From Candidatus Heimdallarchaeota archaeon (GTDB lineage Archaea > Asgardarchaeota > Heimdallarchaeia > Heimdallarchaeales > Heimdallarchaeaceae), in assembly GCA_019057375.1 (NCBI GenBank), contig DXJF01000023.1:1-10657 (forward strand): a stretch of 10,657 bases of DNA, read 5' to 3'. This document shows, piece after piece, positions 2,401-10,657 of the stretch. Every line of letters begins with the position of its first letter. Position 1 is the stretch's first letter. Made by a program: the position numbers and the translations under genes. The notes under the pieces were generated by a model. That model was not told where the DNA came from, ran no database searches, and saw only the letters and a list, made by a program, of their open reading frames with translations.

Positions 2401-4164
2401 GTGAAAAAAATGGGTTATAAAAGCTGGTTTCTGAAACATCTACTAAAAGAGAAATTACTATCCACAATATTGCTAGCATTTCTCTTAGTATTTATTGGAA
2501 CCGTCTCTATAACACCATTATTTATAGGAAATATTTTTAATGAACTAGCTAGTGAAAATAGCTCATTTAAAGCAATAGTGAGTATTGCTTTATTTATCGT
2601 AGGAGCGGGAGTAATCAGAGCAGTTGCAGATTTCACACAGAGTTATGCAAATGAGGTTTTAGCTCATAAAATTACCAAGAATGTTACTGAAGAATTCTAT
2701 GAAAATATGCTTGAGAAAAGTCAAGAATTTCACGATAGAATTAGAATAGGAGATGTGATGGCAAGAGCTACATATGATACACGTCAGATGAACATTTTCA
2801 TTTCTCCTGGAATAAAATTTCTATTTGAAGCATCTTTTACACTCCTCTTTTCGGTTTCTCTAATGATTTGGATCAGCCCAAAATTAACACTTCTTCTAGT
2901 AGCAGCTCTGCCTTTCTATGTCATAGCAATTTATGATTATAATAAAAAATTGCGTCCAATTTCTAAAGCTCAAATGGAACAAAATAGTCTTTTGAATGCC
3001 AGATTGCAAGAAAGTGTTACAGGAATCAGAGTGATTCGAGCTTTTGTGAAAGAAGAGAAAGAGATAAATGAGTTTGATGATGAAACAGATAAATTACGAG
3101 ACATAAATACTCGAAGAGGAATTCTTAGTGCACGTTATTATGCAGTTGTGATAACAGTGTTGATTATCGCTTTCAGTTTCTTATGGGGATCATATGAGGT
3201 AATTAACGGAGATTTAACTCTTGGTAATTTGATTACCTATGTCTTTCTAATGATGACTTTAATGATGCCTACTTGGCAATTTGGTTGGGCGATTACACAA
3301 TTTCAAATAGGAATGGCAGCTGCAAAAAGAATTTTTGAAATGAAAGAGAGAGAGGAGTATGTCCCAGAGTCTTCATCACCTATAGAATGGCAAAGTAAAG
3401 AAGGAACGATCAGTTTCATGAATCTCTCGTTCTCTTATAATGAAGGAAGTAGTAGAAAAAAGGCGCTGAGCAATATCAACCTAGAAGTTCCTGGAGGATC
3501 CACTGTAGCAATCATTGGTAATCCAGGATCAGGCAAATCCACACTAATAAAATTACTAATGAGACTTTATGATCCCACACAAGGGAGTATATTCATTGAT
3601 GGAGTTAATATTAAGGACATGCTTCTATCTGATCTCAGAGATCACATAGGTGTTATTGAACAAGAAGTATTTCTGTTCAGTAAATCAATTAGGGACAATA
3701 TAGCCTATGGAAAACCAAATGCAACAAAGGAAGAAATAGAAGAAGTTTCTGAATTAGCACAAGCTCACGAATTCATAATGAGTTTTGAAAAAGGATATGA
3801 TACAATTATCGGAGAGAGAGGGGTTACTCTTTCGGGGGGACAAAAACAAAGAATTGCAATTGCTAGAGCATTGCTAGTTGATCCTTCATTTTTAATTCTT
3901 GATGATGCAAGCAGTGCCATAGATGCAGAAACGGAAAGAAAAATCCAAACAGCAATAGCTAATGTATTAAAAAATCGAACTACCTTTATTATCACACACA
4001 GGTTAGCCACAATTAAGCATGCTGACCTAATCATAGTTTTGAGAAATGGTTTACTTAAGGACAGCGGATCCCATGATGAACTTATTCTAAGAAATATCGA
4101 CTACAGAAGATTGTTTGAAAGGTTTTCTGAGCTTCCACCAATGACAACAATGGAGGAGAACTAG
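2401..4164 (+). CDS. Type IV ABC exporter half-transporter (TMD+NBD), subunit with degenerate Walker B (TM287/TmrB/MdlA-like)
   Basis: About six hydrophobic TM segments, then Walker A GNPGSGKST, signature LSGGQKQR (from 3829), Walker B LILDDASSAID (Asp replaces the catalytic Glu, 3901-3906), H-loop ITHRL. Start is GTG 2401 or ATG 2410. Confidence 0.93.
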   Translation: MKKMGYKSWFLKHLLKEKLLSTILLAFLLVFIGTVSITPLFIGNIFNELASENSSFKAIVSIALFIVGAGVIRAVADFTQSYANEVLAHKITKNVTEEFYENMLEKSQEFHDRIRIGDVMARATYDTRQMNIFISPGIKFLFEASFTLLFSVSLMIWISPKLTLLLVAALPFYVIAIYDYNKKLRPISKAQMEQNSLLNARLQESVTGIRVIRAFVKEEKEINEFDDETDKLRDINTRRGILSARYYAVVITVLIIAFSFLWGSYEVINGDLTLGNLITYVFLMMTLMMPTWQFGWAITQFQIGMAAAKRIFEMKEREEYVPESSSPIEWQSKEGTISFMNLSFSYNEGSSRKKALSNINLEVPGGSTVAIIGNPGSGKSTLIKLLMRLYDPTQGSIFIDGVNIKDMLLSDLRDHIGVIEQEVFLFSKSIRDNIAYGKPNATKEEIEEVSELAQAHEFIMSFEKGYDTIIGERGVTLSGGQKQRIAIARALLVDPSFLILDDASSAIDAETERKIQTAIANVLKNRTTFIITHRLATIKHADLIIVLRNGLLKDSGSHDELILRNIDYRRLFERFSELPPMTTMEEN

Positions 4165-4165
4165 T

Positions 4166-6043
4166 ATGTCAGAAGAAGATGAATTCAAAAAATCATATGA
4201 TAGACAATATGCAGATATTGAACTATTAAAACGATTTTGGAGATATCTGAAAGTATACAAAAAATATCTTCTCTTTATAATAGTAGGTATTTTAGCAACA
4301 GCTGTTGTTACTATCCTCCCACCGTCTATGGTTCAAAGTGCTTTTGAAGCTTTGGCAGATAGAAACAAACCTTTCCCTCAAGCAATTGATTTTATGCCAA
4401 CATCACTTTTCTTATGGAAATTTCAAATAAACTTGTGGAGAGCTGTTTACCCTTATGCAATTGGATATGTTCTTCTATCATTATTTTTATGGTTAGCCCA
4501 AGTACTTCTAGGGATTATTGTAACCATTGTTTCACAAAGGATAATCAAACGCATTCAAATGGAAACCTATGAGAGTTTACAAGAACATGATTTGATGTAT
4601 TTTGACACGCAGTCAACAGGTCAAATATTGAGCAGAATAACAAATGATTCCCAAGAACTGAATGATATGATCAACGTTGTTTCACAGTTTGTAGCTAATT
4701 TCTTCATATTATTTGCAGTACTGATATGGATGTTCGTTGTAAATTGGAGACTGACATTTATTACACTTGGAATGGCTCCTTTTGTCTTTATTGTTGCTTT
4801 TTTCTTCAGAAGAATAACAAGATTAACCACTGGAAAATGGAGAGCAGCAATTGGAGAAGTAAATGCTTCTTTCCAAGAGAGTGTAGCGGGAATTTCAGTA
4901 GCTAAAGCATTTGGAAGAGAAAAAAAATCTAAAGAAGAATTTGAAGTGATAAATCAAGCAACCTTCTATCACGCAAAAAAAAGAGCTTTTGCGGTGATGG
5001 GAATCTGGCCTTTGATGGATGGCATAAGTACTATTGGAGTGTTTGGAATTACTCTCTACGGTAGTTGGTTATTTTTTGGAAGTTTAGCTTCGTCAGATGT
5101 TATTTTATTGTTCCTCCTACTTCTCAATAGATTCTTATATCCTCTTGTAAGAGTAGCATCACAGTTTTCAGTCATCCAAAGTGGTTTCGTAGCTATGGAA
5201 CGTATTTTCAGTATAGTTGATGCTAAAAAGGAAATCACTAATCCAGCTAATCCAGTCAGTAAAGAGTTGCATGGACAAATCACTTTCGAAAATGTTTATC
5301 ATCAATATGTTCAAGGAGAATCCGTATTGAAAGATATCAATCTTAAGATTCAACCTGGAGAATCTATCGCTGTGGTGGGTCATACAGGGGCAGGGAAGAC
5401 AACTATTGCTTCCCTATTGATGAGATTTTATGATATCTTCAAAGGTTCCATTAAAATTGATGGTGTTGATATTCGAGATTATGACTTGCATAATTTAAGA
5501 TCACAGATAGGCTTAGTAAGTCAAGATGTTTTTCTGTTTAGTGGAACTGTTCTAGATAATATTAGATACGGAAATCCTGAAGCAAGCTTATCACAAGTTC
5601 AAGAAGTTATCAATATAGTTTCAGCTCAAGAATTCATTGATGCATTACCTGATGGTTTAGAGACTGAATTAGGAGAACGAGGTAAAGGACTTTCAGCAGG
5701 TCAGCGTCAGATGGTTTCATTTGCTAGAACACTACTAACCGATCCTAAGATATTAATTTTGGATGAAGCTACAGCTGCAGTTGATGCTTATACTGAGAGT
5801 TTAATTCAAGAAGCTCTTGACAAGCTTCTAGCTGACAGAACTTCTATTGTAATAGCTCATCGTTTAACAACTATAAAGAATTCAGACAGAATCATAGTTC
5901 TTGATCAAGGTAAAATAGTTGAAGAAGGGAATCATGAGAGTCTTATGATTAAAGAAGGATTATATTCAGAGCTTTATGAGACTTACTTTAAACACCAATC
6001 TGCAGAATGGATAGCAGAAATAAGTGAGGTATTTACCGATTAA
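4166..6043 (+). CDS. Type IV ABC exporter half-transporter (TMD+NBD), subunit with canonical Walker B (TM288/TmrA/MdlB-like)
   Basis: TM domain, then Walker A GHTGAGKTT, non-canonical signature LSAGQRQ (from 5690), Walker B LILDEATAAVD, H-loop IAHRL. Starts 1 nt after the previous stop, with a GGAGGAG SD inside the upstream gene. Confidence 0.93.
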   Translation: MSEEDEFKKSYDRQYADIELLKRFWRYLKVYKKYLLFIIVGILATAVVTILPPSMVQSAFEALADRNKPFPQAIDFMPTSLFLWKFQINLWRAVYPYAIGYVLLSLFLWLAQVLLGIIVTIVSQRIIKRIQMETYESLQEHDLMYFDTQSTGQILSRITNDSQELNDMINVVSQFVANFFILFAVLIWMFVVNWRLTFITLGMAPFVFIVAFFFRRITRLTTGKWRAAIGEVNASFQESVAGISVAKAFGREKKSKEEFEVINQATFYHAKKRAFAVMGIWPLMDGISTIGVFGITLYGSWLFFGSLASSDVILLFLLLLNRFLYPLVRVASQFSVIQSGFVAMERIFSIVDAKKEITNPANPVSKELHGQITFENVYHQYVQGESVLKDINLKIQPGESIAVVGHTGAGKTTIASLLMRFYDIFKGSIKIDGVDIRDYDLHNLRSQIGLVSQDVFLFSGTVLDNIRYGNPEASLSQVQEVINIVSAQEFIDALPDGLETELGERGKGLSAGQRQMVSFARTLLTDPKILILDEATAAVDAYTESLIQEALDKLLADRTSIVIAHRLTTIKNSDRIIVLDQGKIVEEGNHESLMIKEGLYSELYETYFKHQSAEWIAEISEVFTD

Positions 6044-6065
6044 AAGTCTATTACAAAAACTGCAA
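5872..6065 (+). repeat. Direct repeat copy 1 (3' 56 codons of ABC exporter gene plus 22 bp); putative attL-type junction
   Basis: Aligns by eye to 7365-7558 with 5 substitutions (5879/7372, 5954/7447, 5995/7488, 6028/7521, 6037/7530) and two 1-nt indels after the stop codon; about 188/195 identical. The repeat is directly visible; the att role is inference. Confidence 0.95.
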
Positions 6066-6125
6066 GTTTTAGAATATTTCTGTAGTATGAACATCTATAC
6101 AATTAGAATACCGACCTTTATAAAA

Positions 6126-7334
6126 TTAACTTAGATTACCGAATTTTATGTTTTTTGCAGAATCTATTGCAGTAGCTATTGTCACTTGACATACTTTTTT
6201 AATGAAATCAAAGTCTAGCTTATCAATTGTATCTGCTTCTGTATGGTAAAATGGATATCTGAAATTTGCTGAATCAGTTATCATTAATGCAGGAATTCCT
6301 TCAAGCCAAAAAGGTGCATGATCTGATCTCAATAGATCAAAAAATCTCTTAGCTATTGTTTCAAAACTCAATGGTATTCTTATTCTTATATAAGGTAGTT
6401 GAATGGAATCATTTTTACATTGTTTGCTGAATGATTTTGCTAGCATTTTTGATTTTTTATCACTCACTACTGTGATGAAATTACCAATTGCTTTAAACTG
6501 ATTAACTTTGTAGCTGGGAAATAGAATTGGATGCATTAATGGTGGATAAATTTGAGAGTTTTTTCTTTTTGCGGTATAGCCTACAGTTTCATTATTTATA
6601 ACGCCAATTATTTCTCTCTTATCTCTCATAGCTTTTGCAACCCATTCACTGCTCCCAACCATTGCTGCCTTTCCTATCCAAGAGGTATAAGTGTCCTTAG
6701 AATATAGCTGACTTATAAATTCAAAATACTTCTTCTCTTGATCTGTAAGCTCATTCATAATCTCTTTTAATGCAAGTTCCCATGACTCTGCTAATGTTCT
6801 TCCCTTTGCTACATTTCTATAAACGAAATTAGAACACTCTTTATACATTTTTTGTGTATGATAAGTTAAAAACCTATAACTCTCATCCATTAATTCTAAT
6901 TCCTGTGCCAACTTTAGCTGTTTTAATTCTCTTGAAGGATTAAATTCTTCTAAAGTAAAACTTACAAAACGAATATTGTTAGTTTCCTTTTCTTTCGCTA
7001 AAATTCTAGCTGCTTCCAGCATTATTGCAATAGCAGATCCATTATCATTTGCTCCAGGTGCATTTATGACCGTATCATAATGACTAGTAATCAATACTTC
7101 TGGACCAGAACTATTTTCAAAATATCCTTCAATATTTCTAAAAGACTGATCAAAATCTTCAATTTTTAATACTTGTTCTTGAACTTGTAATCCATATTTC
7201 ATGAACTTATTTTTTATATAATCTGCTGTTTCATCCAATTTTTTTTGTGCCAATATTGGATGTTTAATTCCCTCAACATTCAAGATATGTTGGTATAATC
7301 TCTCTATATCAACCTGTTCAATAATGTCCTTCAT
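6126..7334 (-). CDS. M28 family metallopeptidase (402 aa) with ~94-aa internal insertion
   Basis: Motifs VLITSHYDT, PGANDNGS, FTLEE, INNETVGY, RSDHAPFW, YHTEADT. Start moved to ATG 7334 (MKDIIEQ) because the track start at 7388 lies inside repeat copy 2 and a TTTATAAA box sits ~29 bp upstream of 7334. No signal peptide is evident. Confidence 0.9.
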   Translation of the reverse strand: MKDIIEQVDIERLYQHILNVEGIKHPILAQKKLDETADYIKNKFMKYGLQVQEQVLKIEDFDQSFRNIEGYFENSSGPEVLITSHYDTVINAPGANDNGSAIAIMLEAARILAKEKETNNIRFVSFTLEEFNPSRELKQLKLAQELELMDESYRFLTYHTQKMYKECSNFVYRNVAKGRTLAESWELALKEIMNELTDQEKKYFEFISQLYSKDTYTSWIGKAAMVGSSEWVAKAMRDKREIIGVINNETVGYTAKRKNSQIYPPLMHPILFPSYKVNQFKAIGNFITVVSDKKSKMLAKSFSKQCKNDSIQLPYIRIRIPLSFETIAKRFFDLLRSDHAPFWLEGIPALMITDSANFRYPFYHTEADTIDKLDFDFIKKVCQVTIATAIDSAKNIKFGNLS

Positions 7335-7362
7335 CTGTAACATTAACATAAAGTTATACATG

Positions 7363-7370
7363 TTTATAAA
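7363..7370 (-). promoter_or_regulatory. Putative TATA box for the M28 peptidase gene
   Basis: Palindromic TTTATAAA 29 bp upstream of ATG 7334, consistent with a leaderless or short-leader archaeal transcript. It straddles the left edge of repeat copy 2. No good BRE seen. Confidence 0.4.
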
Positions 7371-7558
7371 GGATTCAGACAGAATCATAGTTCTTGATCA
7401 AGGTAAAATAGTTGAAGAAGGGAATCATGAGAGTCTTATGATTAAAAAAGGATTATATTCAGAGCTTTATGAGACTTACTTTAAACATCAATCTGCAGAA
7501 TGGATAGCAGAAATAAGTGATGTATTTACAGATTAAAGTCTATTACAAAACACTGCAA
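7365..7558 (+). repeat. Direct repeat copy 2; putative att junction of integrated element(s)
   Basis: Near-identical to 5872-6065. Homology begins abruptly at TATAAAG and ends at ACTGCAA; the flanks differ on both sides. Confidence 0.95.
7366..7536 (+). pseudogene. 3' fragment (residues 570-625 equivalent) of the ABC exporter gene 4166-6043
   Basis: IKDSDRIIVLDQGKIVEEGNHESLMIKKGLYSELYETYFKHQSAEWIAEISDVFTD* matches the exporter C-terminus except N>D, E>K, E>D. The 14 residues upstream of this in the track ORF 7324..7536 are unrelated sequence. Confidence 0.9.
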
Positions 7559-7617
7559 AGGACACCACCTTCTTGTTTACTCCAGATTTTCGAAAGGAGA
7601 ACTTGAAACAGCAGATA

Positions 7618-7938
7618 TCATGAAAAGACCCCCTTATTAGAAGCCTGTCTACTTGCTTCATCTGATGTGAGTTGGTCTAGTATCTGTAAGAGTTGTTCAT
7701 AAGGAATTAATCTCGGTGGATAATGGCAAATGATCTTTAATCCAGTTGCATGATGTTGAAAAATAATAGAATGGTTATTTTTGATAACTTTATTTATTTC
7801 GAAAAGCTGTCTCAAGAAACTAATTACCTTGATAAATTCCTTTATTTTGTCTTTTTTCTGTACTGCTTGTTCTATATGATAATCAGTAGCAATGGTTGCT
7901 AATTTATCAAAATTATTGTTAGAGCTAATTATCCTCAT
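7618..7938 (-). CDS. Hypothetical protein, 106 aa; weak HicA-like (dsRBD-fold) pattern, alternatively a recombination directionality factor
   Basis: ATG overlaps the recombinase 3' end by 14 bp. Segment KVISFLRQLFEINKVIKNNHSIIFQHHATGLKIICHYPPRLIPYEQLLQILDQL loosely resembles the HicA helix-beta3-helix pattern. Judged by eye only. Confidence 0.5.
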   Translation of the reverse strand: MRIISSNNNFDKLATIATDYHIEQAVQKKDKIKEFIKVISFLRQLFEINKVIKNNHSIIFQHHATGLKIICHYPPRLIPYEQLLQILDQLTSDEASRQASNKGVFS

Positions 7939-8713
7939 CCTCCAGTGTTCCTATTATTGGTTCAACTCTGTAAGCTACCTTCCCCCTGAAGAGATATTCC
8001 CCTGTTCGATAAATTGGATTTCTTACCATATAGGATAATGTACTAGTAGGAATCTTGAATTTATGACTAATTCTGGAATAAGAATAATTATTATCAAACA
8101 TACGAAAAATTTCAATGATTAAAGATCTAAGCTCTTCATCAACAACTAATTTACCTTCAATTATTTTATAACCATAAGGAGCTCGAGACATTACTTTTTC
8201 ATCTTTAAGCCTTCTTTCTATCCCCTGCTCGCTTTTCAATCTAGTTTTTCTTAATTCTTCCTCTCCCATAACATCATAGATCCTTTTCTTAAGATTAGAA
8301 TCATCATCTTCAGTAGAAAGAATTTCAACACACAGTTTCCTAAGCAAAATAGCAGTATAACCTAGATAATCTACATCTCTAGCTATACGATCCCGAGTTT
8401 GTACCCAGACTTCTTTAATAGGACCACTAGAATTCTGCAGGTTGAAGTCTTTTGTAAATTTCAGTAGTTCTTTAAAAGCTGGCCGCTCTTCAGGTGAAAT
8501 GTCTCCTGAAACACCTTCATCAATAAAGGTCTTGATAATAGATCTAAAACCTAAAGATTCTATTTTCTTAGTAATAACATCTATTTGTGTGCTGATTCCT
8601 GATTCTTGGTTATTGGTACTAGCTCGAGAATAAACAAGAATAGGAATAGGGGTACTTTTCAAACCGCCCCCTTTAATCTCGTTACTATCTATCTTTTCCT
8701 TATCCTTTATCAC
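7925..8713 (-). CDS. Serine recombinase: catalytic domain plus short recombinase DNA-binding domain, no Zn-ribbon/coiled coil
   Basis: VYSRAS (nucleophile S32), FIDEGVSG, ERPAFKELL, DRIARD, long helix E, then RAPYGY, RNPIYRTG and EPII, ending 8 residues later. The GTG start overlaps the upstream TGA (GTGA, 8710-8713). Confidence 0.9.
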   Translation of the reverse strand: MIKDKEKIDSNEIKGGGLKSTPIPILVYSRASTNNQESGISTQIDVITKKIESLGFRSIIKTFIDEGVSGDISPEERPAFKELLKFTKDFNLQNSSGPIKEVWVQTRDRIARDVDYLGYTAILLRKLCVEILSTEDDDSNLKKRIYDVMGEEELRKTRLKSEQGIERRLKDEKVMSRAPYGYKIIEGKLVVDEELRSLIIEIFRMFDNNYSYSRISHKFKIPTSTLSYMVRNPIYRTGEYLFRGKVAYRVEPIIGTLEDEDN

Positions 8714-9657
8714 TTACAATCCCCCAATCCTTCTTTTGCTTGTTTAACCCAAGTGTCTAAAGTAGAATCCTTTTTAGAAATAGCTGTTTTTGCTTTTTCA
8801 GTTTTATCCAGTCTATTATTCAGCAAGCTAACAACTTCTTTGTAATTTTTAATATCTAAAGCACTATATCTATAAATGTTGAAAGCTCTTTTGAGTTCAT
8901 TACAAACCTGGTTAAAATGTACTCCTTCCTTTTGAGCAACGGCTTTAATTAGAAATTTGATTGTTTCTACTTGTTTTCTTATAGTTCCAGGTTCTGGAAC
9001 CTTTGAGGCTCCATTTTGACTGTCAATTTGAAACTGGTTGATTGATTTGATTTCCTTAATCTCTCGTTCAACATCTTCAAGTTTGTTATGGAAATAATTA
9101 ATTTCTCCACTATAGAAGAGATCATTGACCTTTAATTTTTCTACTTCCTTTCTAATTCTCACTTGATGGTTTTCCAAATTCACTATTGTTAAAGAATCTA
9201 TAGGAGTAATGGAGGTAGTTTGAGAAACAATTGGTTGAGAAGTAGCTTTGGAGAGCATTTTCATTGATAAAATATTTACAACCCAATCCATTATTAGAGA
9301 TCTTTCAGGAGTTTTGATTAGCATGAGAATTTTAAGAATACCAGGAAAAGTTATGAAAAGCTTAAGATTTTTATATTGGACATTCTGTCCAATATTGGAC
9401 AATCTGTCCAGAATGACATAATTTTCTAATTCATCTTTATTTCTATAGTAAGCTTTGTAAATTGAGTTTGGATTTTTAGGATAGGCAATTTTACCAAATT
9501 GATTTAGAGCTAGAACTTTTTGTCCAGCAATATGGAAAACAGGAATCTCAATACCATTAAAAAGTAAAGTTTCTGCTACTTCAGGTGGATTAAATGTCTC
9601 TTTCAAATGAGGAATGATTGAGGTTTCCTCTTCTTTATCGAATGGCATAGATTTCAT
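8710..9657 (-). CDS. Bro-N domain / ORF6C-domain phage antirepressor-like protein
   Basis: N-terminal 'FNGIEIPVF...IYKAYYRNKDEL...LFITFPGILKILM...LIMDWV' fits the Bro-N pattern, followed by a central coiled coil. C-terminal 'QVETIKFLIKAVAQKEG.HFNQVCNELKRAFNIYRYSALDIKNYKEVVSLL' fits ORF6C. Clear AGGAG SD upstream. Confidence 0.7.
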   Translation of the reverse strand: MKSMPFDKEEETSIIPHLKETFNPPEVAETLLFNGIEIPVFHIAGQKVLALNQFGKIAYPKNPNSIYKAYYRNKDELENYVILDRLSNIGQNVQYKNLKLFITFPGILKILMLIKTPERSLIMDWVVNILSMKMLSKATSQPIVSQTTSITPIDSLTIVNLENHQVRIRKEVEKLKVNDLFYSGEINYFHNKLEDVEREIKEIKSINQFQIDSQNGASKVPEPGTIRKQVETIKFLIKAVAQKEGVHFNQVCNELKRAFNIYRYSALDIKNYKEVVSLLNNRLDKTEKAKTAISKKDSTLDTWVKQAKEGLGDCK

Positions 9658-9736
9658 TTGTTACTCTCCTTTTTGGAAAACAGAAAGAAATATGCTAAAA
9701 CTTTAAGAACCAAGAAAAAGTGTTATTAATTGATTG

Positions 9737-9761
9737 AAAAGCTGGATTTAATCCAGTTTTT
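9737..9761. terminator. Inverted repeat, possible terminator/attenuator or protein-binding site
   Basis: AAAAG-CTGGATT-T-AATCCAG-TTTTT: perfect 7-bp arms extended by A/T runs, 10 bp downstream of the small RHH gene stop. Confidence 0.45.
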
Positions 9762-9771
9762 CTTTCTTCCT

Positions 9772-9930
9772 TTAATCTTCTTTTTCCTGATCCTGTTGTT
9801 CAGCTAGGTATTTCTTAACTGCTTTTTCTAGTTCTGTTTTTGCACTCCTAGCGTTTCGATGCTTTTTAAACGAAAATTCTTGAAGCTGATTATACAGCTC
9901 TTTATCTATTCTGGCTAAGGTTGATGACAT
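9772..9930 (-). CDS. Small ribbon-helix-helix (CopG/Arc-like) DNA-binding protein, 52 aa (not in ORF track)
   Basis: Hand translation: MSSTLARIDKELYNQLQEFSFKKHRNARSAKTELEKAVKKYLAEQQDQEKED*. Beta strand (TLARI), helix A (DKELYNQL), helix B (SAKTELEKAVKKYL). AGGT SD-like motif and TTATATTA box upstream on the - strand. Confidence 0.75.
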   Translation of the reverse strand: MSSTLARIDKELYNQLQEFSFKKHRNARSAKTELEKAVKKYLAEQQDQEKED

Positions 9931-9974
9931 TTTTTTTACCTATTAATATATTAGAAAATCAGTTAATATAAGGG

Positions 9975-10051
9975 TTGTCGTAACTTTGTCTGACAAAAAA
10001 GCTTATAACTTGTTAATGAGTATATTAAATAATGTCAGACAAAACAGACAA
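9975..10051. promoter_or_regulatory. Divergent promoter region with operator-like palindromes
   Basis: TTTGTC-T-GACAAA (9985-9997) and TGTC-A-GACAAAA (10033-10044, over the start codon). Extra half-sites TTGTC (9975-9979) and GACAA (10047-10051). TATA-like TTATAA (10003-10008) after an A-rich BRE-like run, ~24 bp before ATG 10032. Confidence 0.6.
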
Positions 10052-10657
10052 TCTCTTACAAAAAGTGGCTTTTAGACTATCTAATGATAAACATGAAAAA
10101 ATTAACTCTGTTTTAGAAGATGGAAAGTATTATCGTCAATCTAATTTCTTACGTAGTGCTGTTGATTTACTTCTGTTTTGGGAAAATAAACTTGACATAG
10201 AAGAGGTAACAGATCTTTCATTGAGAAAGAGTATTAAAAATCGTTTTGCTAAAGCTGAAAAAGTAGAAAAGGAGTTTCCAGAAATAAGAGCGAAGATAAT
10301 GGAAGATTATGAATTAAATAAAAGATTCCAAGCAAAGTTAATGGAAATGACTGAATCATATGAAAAAAGGCTTGAAAAGGATAGAAAGAAAATTGATAAA
10401 AAAAGAAAAGAAGATCAAAATTTTGTAGAAAAGTTTGCTCCAAGTTTAAAAGAATACGAAAAAGAAACAAAGAAAACCGCAATGGAAATAGTTCTATTCA
10501 TCATTCAATTAATAAAAAATCTATACTCGCAATTTGAAGAAAAAGAAACACCGCTTAAGATTAAGGAATGGGAAACACAAACTTTAATTGATGCTAAAAA
10601 ACTGTTTGATGAGATTACAACCGAAGATAAAAAGAAGACATCAAAAAACGATATTAA
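10032..10657 (+). CDS. 3'-partial protein with N-terminal ribbon-helix-helix domain and long coiled coil; putative repressor (not in ORF track)
   Basis: Open frame from ATG 10032 to the window end (208 codons, no stop): MSDKTDNLLQKVAFRLSNDKHEKINSVLEDGKYYRQSNFLRSAVDLLLFWE... The 'VAFRL...SNFLRSAVDLLL' segment is a typical RHH pattern, followed by an E/K-rich helical region. Confidence 0.78.
   Translation, partial: MSDKTDNLLQKVAFRLSNDKHEKINSVLEDGKYYRQSNFLRSAVDLLLFWENKLDIEEVTDLSLRKSIKNRFAKAEKVEKEFPEIRAKIMEDYELNKRFQAKLMEMTESYEKRLEKDRKKIDKKRKEDQNFVEKFAPSLKEYEKETKKTAMEIVLFIIQLIKNLYSQFEEKETPLKIKEWETQTLIDAKKLFDEITTEDKKKTSKNDI

Follow-up and report, generated by a model that had tools for sequence, protein, structure and literature searches.

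Gene-restoring att duplications, cis-mobilizable elements (CIMEs) and tandem accretion are known from integrative elements such as ICESt1 and ICESt3 of Streptococcus thermophilus. Displaced gene tails, or 'orphan' arrays, are found at conserved anchors in Rhs, contact-dependent inhibition (CDI) and type VI secretion system (T6SS) effector-immunity loci. Campbell-type insertion-duplication and homology-facilitated illegitimate recombination (HFIR) were reportedly described in naturally transformable bacteria by de Vries & Wackernagel in 2002 and by Prudhomme et al. in 2002. A further model, microhomology-mediated break-induced replication or fork stalling and template switching (MMBIR/FoSTeS), has been described for nonrecurrent rearrangements (PMC2621351). 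Here, we analysed a 10,657-nt stretch of DNA from a Candidatus Heimdallarchaeota archaeon (contig DXJF01000023.1 of assembly GCA_019057375.1; hereafter, the window), in which the 3' end of an ATP-binding cassette (ABC) exporter gene occurs twice, with an M28 peptidase gene between the copies and a serine-recombinase island after the second. We show that a 1493-bp unit (a spacer, the peptidase gene and one 194-bp copy of the repeat) is an insertion-duplication in the ABC tail, carried by two sister species, and that the repeat, probably a fixed recombination scar, is not an att site of the neighbouring island.

The locus resembles the CIMEs of ICESt1/ICESt3 in that an intact target lies at one end and a 3' fragment at the other, with an integrase-less unit beside an integrase-bearing element. 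Unlike in those elements, the adjacent recombinase does not cross over within the repeat, neither excision products nor empty sites turned up, and one joint is a microhomology with the native promoter of the cargo. As in Rhs, CDI and T6SS arrays (where repeated events give serial relics), incoming DNA would have recombined with the conserved part of a gene and pushed the old 3' end downstream. Unlike in those arrays, the new ABC tail is nearly identical to the old one and brings no new toxin tip, and the cargo is an unrelated, housekeeping-type peptidase.

The window is the entire contig C118 of a short-read metagenome-assembled genome (MAG; G000; 159 contigs, 3.47 Mb, 89% complete), which we compared with 24 other genomes of the genus (25 including G000) and with public protein and contig collections. 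The last 56 codons of the exporter gene and 22 bp beyond them form a direct repeat (194/195 bp) whose copies, A and A', lie 1493 bp apart. Gapped alignment of the copies gave 96% identity, with 5 substitutions and 2 one-base indels; a repeat search recovered an ungapped core (5872-6044 and 7365-7537) at 97%, and BLAST aligned 195 bp at 96.4% (E 2e-86). A preliminary description of this DNA had reported the same doubling of the ABC 3' end, and these three methods bore it out. Open reading frames (ORFs) and Pfam matches also confirmed its statements that the peptidase is the sole gene between the copies, that a recombinase module follows the second copy, and that the peptidase unit has no integrase; its view that an intact ABC gene is left together with a displaced 3' fragment was likewise supported. 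When the repeat was searched against the 3.47-Mb assembly, the only matches beyond the two copies were ABC paralogues at 71-72% identity.

The structure is found in two sister species, that of the window (G000) and that of G011; the nearest insertion-free relative is G009. ABC exporter orthologues in sister species have 91-95% nucleotide identity. In G009, three conserved genes (d131-d126-d384) come immediately after the ABC gene. Copy A' and positions 7560-7590 are colinear with the G009 ABC tail and its downstream flank, while homology of copy A to G009 ends at 6066; A' thus marks the displaced original position. Copy A thus continues the gene body and copy A' runs into the native flank, as expected of an insertion-duplication, and this colinearity indicates that the spacer, the peptidase gene and an additional 194 bp were inserted. 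In the G011 species, strains that are 99-100% identical to G011 over 7.4 kb read ABC, A, peptidase, A', flank and d131 without the island, which is present in G011 itself and in the window; the d131-d126-d384 block of G000 lies on contig C134 from about 15196. Among the assemblies of the two carrier species, look-ups of exact d131 and ABC proteins revealed no empty (popped-out) site and no case in which the peptidase unit had inserted again independently. These results demonstrate that the working ABC gene is completed by copy A, and that copy A', still next to the original flank, is a defunct, displaced tail. The short ORF of copy A' is interrupted by a premature stop in G011 and L066 and is thus dispensable. 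Gene callers annotate it because an ACATGT palindrome at the joint supplies the relic with an in-frame ATG; in practical terms, a pseudogene fragment is being annotated as a 58-aa protein.

A duplication of this kind in a short-read MAG could be an assembly artefact that fused two strain variants, and several assemblies (L063, L065 and L076-L078) do end within the repeat. However, at least 10 assemblies, which differ in sample and pipeline and represent two species, have identical joints, and the repeat sequences are species-specific. Moreover, the sequences meeting at the insert/copy A' joint have just 6-7 nt in common, which is too short for a graph join. Both copies with their unique flanks were found in G011, in seven ENA scaffolds from different samples, in GCA_022096915.1 and in GCA_019056895.1, the last of which is 99.95% identical to the window. 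We thus give an artefact virtually no credence.

The peptidase matched PF04389 at E 2.6e-26 and 93 bits (cutoff 21.3), which places it in family M28, and its 358 homologues at E <= 1e-50 are named M28 peptidases of Heimdall/Asgard archaea. Its start is an invariant Met (Met-10, ATG 7334-7332), at which distant homologues also begin, rather than the ORF-caller start at 7388; with the start at 7334, the coding sequence does not overlap copy A'. In G015, G021 and the metagenome contig L057, orthologues with 79-84% nucleotide identity lie elsewhere, in a conserved gene order (548aa-441aa-(364aa)-peptidase); the equivalent locus in G000 (C89) has no peptidase. The closest relatives that are peptidase-free at the ABC locus (G009, G013 and G018) have only peptidase paralogues at 66-68% or none. 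Since orthologues sit at the native locus elsewhere and these three relatives lack one, the adjacency of ABC gene and peptidase is derived. All five members of the 90% protein cluster of the peptidase are in the ABC context, and a metagenome scan for other contexts yielded one locus, of the native type. The 76-nt stretch 6067-6142 (the spacer and the last 5 peptidase codons) has no match elsewhere in the 25 genomes (query 6060-6150), and in a by-eye comparison the spacer was weakly similar to the island att arms. Near the peptidase 3' end, a T-run at 6150 differs by one base in length from G011, which alters the last few codons.

The same comparison bears on an alternative that the preliminary description had itself offered, namely that the peptidase is a native neighbour of the exporter and that the recombinase element placed an ABC-like attP arm in the peptidase promoter. 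In the window, copy A' does lie directly before the element. However, strains with copy A' and no element exist, copy A' and its flank are the native ABC tail and flank, G009, G013 and G018 have no peptidase at the ABC locus, and the reconstructed attP of the element has no ABC coding sequence. The comparison with related genomes that the description had called for thus went against its own alternative: in G009 the ABC gene is followed by d131, and in insertion-free relatives the sequence that flanks copy A' is the native ABC flank. The strains that have no element refute this alternative, to which we give next to no credence.

We examined how the insert joins copy A'. In the ABC gene, the repeat begins with TATAAAG, which spans Ile-Lys codons at about codon 570. 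The palindrome TTTATAAA at the joint is probably the archaeal TATA box of the peptidase, a promoter role suggested by its position only, which is the usual one for archaeal TATA boxes; the native peptidase locus of G021 has the same box in the same position. Similarity between the window and this native G021 upstream region crosses the 5' end of the gene into TTATAAA and ends exactly where copy A' starts. Because the G021 similarity ends in TTATAAA where the TATAAAG of copy A' begins, the insert/copy A' joint is a 6-bp microhomology. TATAAA is thus present in both partners, as expected of an illegitimate joint, with G021 as the one native comparator.

Table 1 Coordinates of the exporter-peptidase locus and the adjoining part of the island in the window.
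Feature	Position	Strand	Description
ABC exporter, intact	4166..6043	+	625 aa; Pfam ABC_membrane and ABC_tran; second of two exporter genes with fused transmembrane and nucleotide-binding domains
Copy A	5872..6066	+	Last 56 codons, stop TAA 6041-6043 and about 22 nt; joined to the ABC gene body
Spacer	6067..6125		Between copy A and the peptidase stop
M28 peptidase coding sequence	6126..7334	-	402 aa from the conserved Met; open frame extends to 7361/7388; Pfam PF04389
Palindromic TTTATAAA	7363..7370	-	29-36 nt upstream of the peptidase ATG; straddles the insert/copy A' joint
Copy A' (second copy)	7365..7559	+	Displaced ABC 3' relic; 58-codon ORF 7360-7536
Native ABC downstream flank, left arm of attL	7560..7584	+	Crossover in TCCA 7581-7584; attB (L058, G009), attL (window, G011:C29) and attR (G000:C134, G011:C14) compared
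Island, left 3.07 kb	7585..10657		Continues on G000:C134:1-15195; total at least 18.3 kb
o106	7618-7938	-	106-aa ORF in the island
Serine recombinase (predicted)	7925-8713	-	262 aa; Pfam Resolvase, E 1.6e-13
o315	8710-9657	-	315-aa ORF in the island
o208	10032-end	+	Open-ended 208-aa ORF in the island

The preliminary description had read the 194-bp repeat as the att of the neighbouring recombinase element and had predicted a third copy at the far end of that element. Comparison of att sites revealed a different crossover. In the G011 species, attB (L058) equals the left part of attL (G011:C29) joined to the right part of attR (G011:C14), exactly and with a 4-nt overlap, TCCA. In the window, this crossover lies 45-48 nt past the stop of the relic and 22-25 nt past copy A', and thus outside the repeat. 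The island has its own, imperfect att, as the reconstructed attP resembles attB over about 35 nt only. A third 194-bp copy is absent from the assembly, and the far end of the island (G000:C134, about 15196) has only the ~35-bp att arm in common. Neither the att role of the repeat nor the third copy therefore held up. The island has a recombinase catalytic domain at its end and reciprocal att sites, and its presence is polymorphic among strains of one species. From these features we conclude that it is an independent, later, site-specific insertion at its own attB. Since the peptidase and copy A' are found without the island in many strains, the two insertions are unlinked. Of the tandem accretion proposed in the preliminary description, what stands is that two independent insertions lie in tandem behind the ABC gene, while the recombinase has no role in the repeat.

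Like the serine-recombinase islands of the Ccr (SCCmec) and XisF type, this island has a Resolvase-fold domain encoded by a terminal gene of the element, no target duplication other than the crossover overlap (4 nt at most), and an integration site downstream of a conserved gene. Unlike in those systems, the predicted recombinase is only 262 aa long and the host is an Asgard archaeon. Its matches to NCBIfam XisF/CcrA cover the N-terminal half only (positions ~2-210 of these large serine recombinases), the 106-aa ORF that overlaps it is separate, and a PDB sequence search with it returned no match. This two-ORF layout is kept in G011 and G022, and homology to the module of G022 begins at 7592; the pair may be a split recombinase. 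Three recombinase paralogues (45-62% amino acid identity) are encoded in G000, on C127, C16 and C56. The part of the island on C134 has defence-type cargo: an IetA-like AAA ATPase, an LmuB-like SMC ATPase and a SIR2-domain protein. A term search of two papers on Asgard mobile elements (PMC8813620 and PMC11529989) found no mention of serine recombinases.

At the island crossover, two other genomes have single-gene inserts: 1.08 kb with a 295-aa gene in G018:C99 (L023, ~3100-4180), with an att-like arm on its right, and 1.6 kb with a 473-aa gene in G013:C169 (L018, ~7830-9410), with the right junction as in G018. These could be deletion derivatives or trans-mobilised mini-elements. On this evidence, we regard the ABC/d131 intergenic region as a true site-specific hotspot, and the peptidase does not sit at that site. 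L081, a Logan unitig (ERR1299386) from the window's species, begins exactly at the island crossover (CTCCACC...), which hints that occupied and empty island sites coexist in that sample. On the other side of the ABC operon, the gene at 2-1210 encodes a RING-finger domain protein (PF13639, just above the Pfam cutoff) with a faint PCI-domain match, a eukaryote-like signature of the kind typical for Asgard genomes.

Identities along the ABC operon fit the tree ((G000,G011),(G009,G013)), so a single event in the common ancestor of the carriers suffices. Since then, evolution of the copies has been concerted. A variant block particular to each species occurs in A as well as in A', and a Ser/Gly polymorphism co-varies in A and A' among strains; gene conversion between the copies would account for their remaining 93-96% alike. 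The peptidase ORF is 99.2% identical between the species (10 differences in 1239 nt), whereas the flanks have diverged by about 5.7% (binomial P = 5e-20). This high-identity tract includes neither the repeats (91-93% between species) nor the left portion of the spacer, which has 3 differences in 34 nt against 10 in 1271 (Fisher P = 0.004), and there are further short high-identity tracts between the species along the ABC operon. We infer that a recombination tract of ~1.1-1.3 kb homogenised the peptidase ORF between species within the pre-existing structure. A recent between-species transfer of the whole cassette was rejected, as the 99.2% tract is confined to the ORF. In both species, working copy A has most of the states that are not found in the three nearest outgroups, in its insert-proximal half, and A' matches the outgroups there. 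This weakly suggests a mosaic of resident/donor, insert and donor/resident sequence, on few sites that are confounded by recombination.

Self-comparison of G000 revealed about 12 direct-repeat pairs of this gene-end/relic type (70-600 bp, 70-96% identity, 0.3-10 kb apart), in which one copy is at the end of a long ORF and the other is outside long ORFs; both 3'-end and 5'-end cases occur. At G000:C77:11927-17071 (L082), the last 165 bp of a major facilitator superfamily (MFS) gene are repeated (92%) 5 kb downstream. Four genes make up the cargo there, with a subtilase and a TIR protein of the CAP12/Pycsar type among them; G011:C125 and G010:C121 have no insert at this site. Joined to the relic, in a different register, is a partial MFS fragment that has diverged further. 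At the margin of this cargo, a 78-aa ORF (G000:C77:12161-12397; L082 3162-3398, minus strand) belongs to a multi-copy family (~270 bp, 80-90%) with members in C117, C132, C84, G011, G013 and G024. At G000:C40:39841-41117 (L084), 95-bp direct repeats enclose one APH-family kinase unit with constant ends (39936-40994). This unit is 92% identical in G001, G005 and G023, where it lies behind a different gene, while other genes of those species are 66-78% identical; next to it in G023 is a relic (99 nt, 76% identical) of the 3' end of that gene. C112 has a 598-bp 3' relic, and C117 a 5'-end case. No recognisable integrase was found in the cargo blocks scanned at these loci, and neither an Rfam family nor a tRNA was found as target or cargo in the window and the analogous loci. 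In another genome (G001:C12:37600-42916; L104/L105), an M28 paralogue has serial 3'-end relics (191 bp, 391 bp and a repeated 135-bp flank) with one inserted gene per pair, a series that by its layout is a displacement array.

These single-gene units bear on a further possibility, raised in the preliminary description, that the 194-bp repeats are attL and attR of an integrase-less, CIME-like cassette mobilised in trans and accreted in tandem with the recombinase element. Target-derived direct repeats do flank a single promoter-to-terminator unit, and single-gene mobile units exist in the genus, as the APH unit (92% across species with flanks at 66-78%) and the 1.08-kb insert at the island crossover in G018 indicate. 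In addition, L068 (GCA_021399335.1 JAAFKH010000019.1), a 1576-bp MAG contig, has an exact 83-bp terminal repeat and a period of 1493, as if derived from a circle. However, a de Bruijn graph cycle through the common 83-mer gives the same contig, and we rejected L068 as evidence for a circle; L063 and L065 have no terminal repeat. Furthermore, the neighbouring recombinase crosses over outside the repeat at a different, ~35-bp att, the assembly has no further copy, the unit occurs without the recombinase element, and no empty site was seen in the assemblies of the two species. The joint also lies in microhomology with the native promoter of the gene, the 99.2% tract leaves out the repeats and left spacer and so argues against recent transfer of the whole cassette, and the many target genes elsewhere would need many specificities. 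A trans-mobilised cassette is thus unlikely.

Together, the data exclude the native-neighbour alternative, an assembly artefact and a link to the crossover of the neighbouring recombinase, and they favour a recombinase-independent event. As a whole, the locus would be best explained by a homology- or microhomology-driven insertion-duplication, independent of a recombinase, in the ancestor of the two species, an explanation to which we attach a little less than even confidence. The most likely route, proposed more tentatively still, is homology-anchored import, either by Campbell pop-in or by HFIR. No dedicated recombinase would have been involved in the insertion. DNA from a close relative, in which the peptidase unit came after the tail of an ABC orthologue, would have entered and paired with the ABC gene of the resident. 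The far end of this incoming DNA, or its joint if the fragment had circularised, would then have been sealed at the 6-bp TATAAA common to the peptidase TATA box and the Ile-Lys codons near codon 570, displacing the resident's last 194 bp downstream. Only products with an intact ABC gene and a peptidase TATA box would survive.

Import is supported because working copy A, and not the neutral relic, has most of the non-outgroup states, because the C77 MFS locus combines a resident/donor pattern with a diverged extra fragment of the target gene joined to the cargo, and because the APH unit of G023 sits between a target-gene tail and its 76%-identical relic. Since the recurrences involve 3' and 5' ends of many genes, a target-agnostic homology route also suits them better than one att enzyme. 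As in Campbell-type insertion and HFIR, the locus has a one-sided homologous anchor, a microhomology at the far joint and no dedicated recombinase; foreign DNA is placed beside the anchor gene, and the repeats could recombine it out. Unlike in those systems, the event is natural and fixed and the host is an Asgard archaeon, the anchor itself contains the illegitimate joint, so that a 194-bp duplication and not a deletion results, and the donor state is not observed. Retroposition of a leaderless mRNA was not supported, given that the TATA box region is part of the unit and that 194 bp are duplicated.

Several points weigh against homology-anchored import. A donor state with the ABC gene followed by the peptidase and no relic was found neither in the 24 other genomes nor in the public protein and contig collections, where sampling is sparse. 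The 76-nt spacer has no source match in the genus, the microhomology rests on a single native upstream sequence (G021), and the donor/resident mosaic, with its few sites, could instead reflect inter-species recombination. Short-read assemblies under-detect perfectly identical repeats, so a lack of young, identical cases is uninformative. Finally, an intragenomic template switch would give an identical structure in one step. In such replicative switching (of the MMBIR/FoSTeS type), a strand would exit the ABC flank 22 nt past the stop, use the native locus or incoming DNA as template for the peptidase unit, and return via the TATAAA microhomology to ABC codon ~570, re-copying 194 bp. The microhomology at the insert/A' joint fits this route, which yields an insertion plus a duplication of the departure region and requires no donor adjacency, and the ABC-peptidase donor state was indeed not found in the genomes and collections covered. 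On the other hand, from an identical start, non-outgroup states would not be expected to be more numerous in the working copy than in the relic (a difference for which subsequent recombination could account), the diverged extra target fragment that accompanies the C77 cargo points to imported homologous DNA, and the first switch has no microhomology evidence, with a spacer that has no source match. As in MMBIR/FoSTeS (PMC2621351), the locus combines insertion and duplication with microhomology at a joint; unlike in that model, described for eukaryotic copy-number variants, the template here may be foreign DNA, for which the evidence of imported homology is weak. Template switching is a possible but rather unlikely origin.

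The peptidase locus belongs to a known kind of event, of which it offers a clean and fixed case in an interesting lineage. It would be a base-resolved record of gene gain in an Asgard archaeon without a mobile-element enzyme, in which the target gene stays intact and the cargo keeps its TATA box, and it can be cleanly separated from a true site-specific integration just 22 nt away. It may also be one fixed example of something broader. Heimdall-group and other Asgard archaea may routinely gain genes through integrase-less pop-in/pop-out units (a promoter-to-terminator segment plus the end of a neighbouring gene), at about a dozen loci per genome. Host homologous recombination and a microhomology joint would insert each unit and leave a displaced tail, and recombination between the copies would let it exit. 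We regard this general route as doubtful and, at present, unproven. If one such route does lie behind these layouts of gene end, cargo and relic, it would bear on gene flow in the archaeal lineage closest to eukaryotes.

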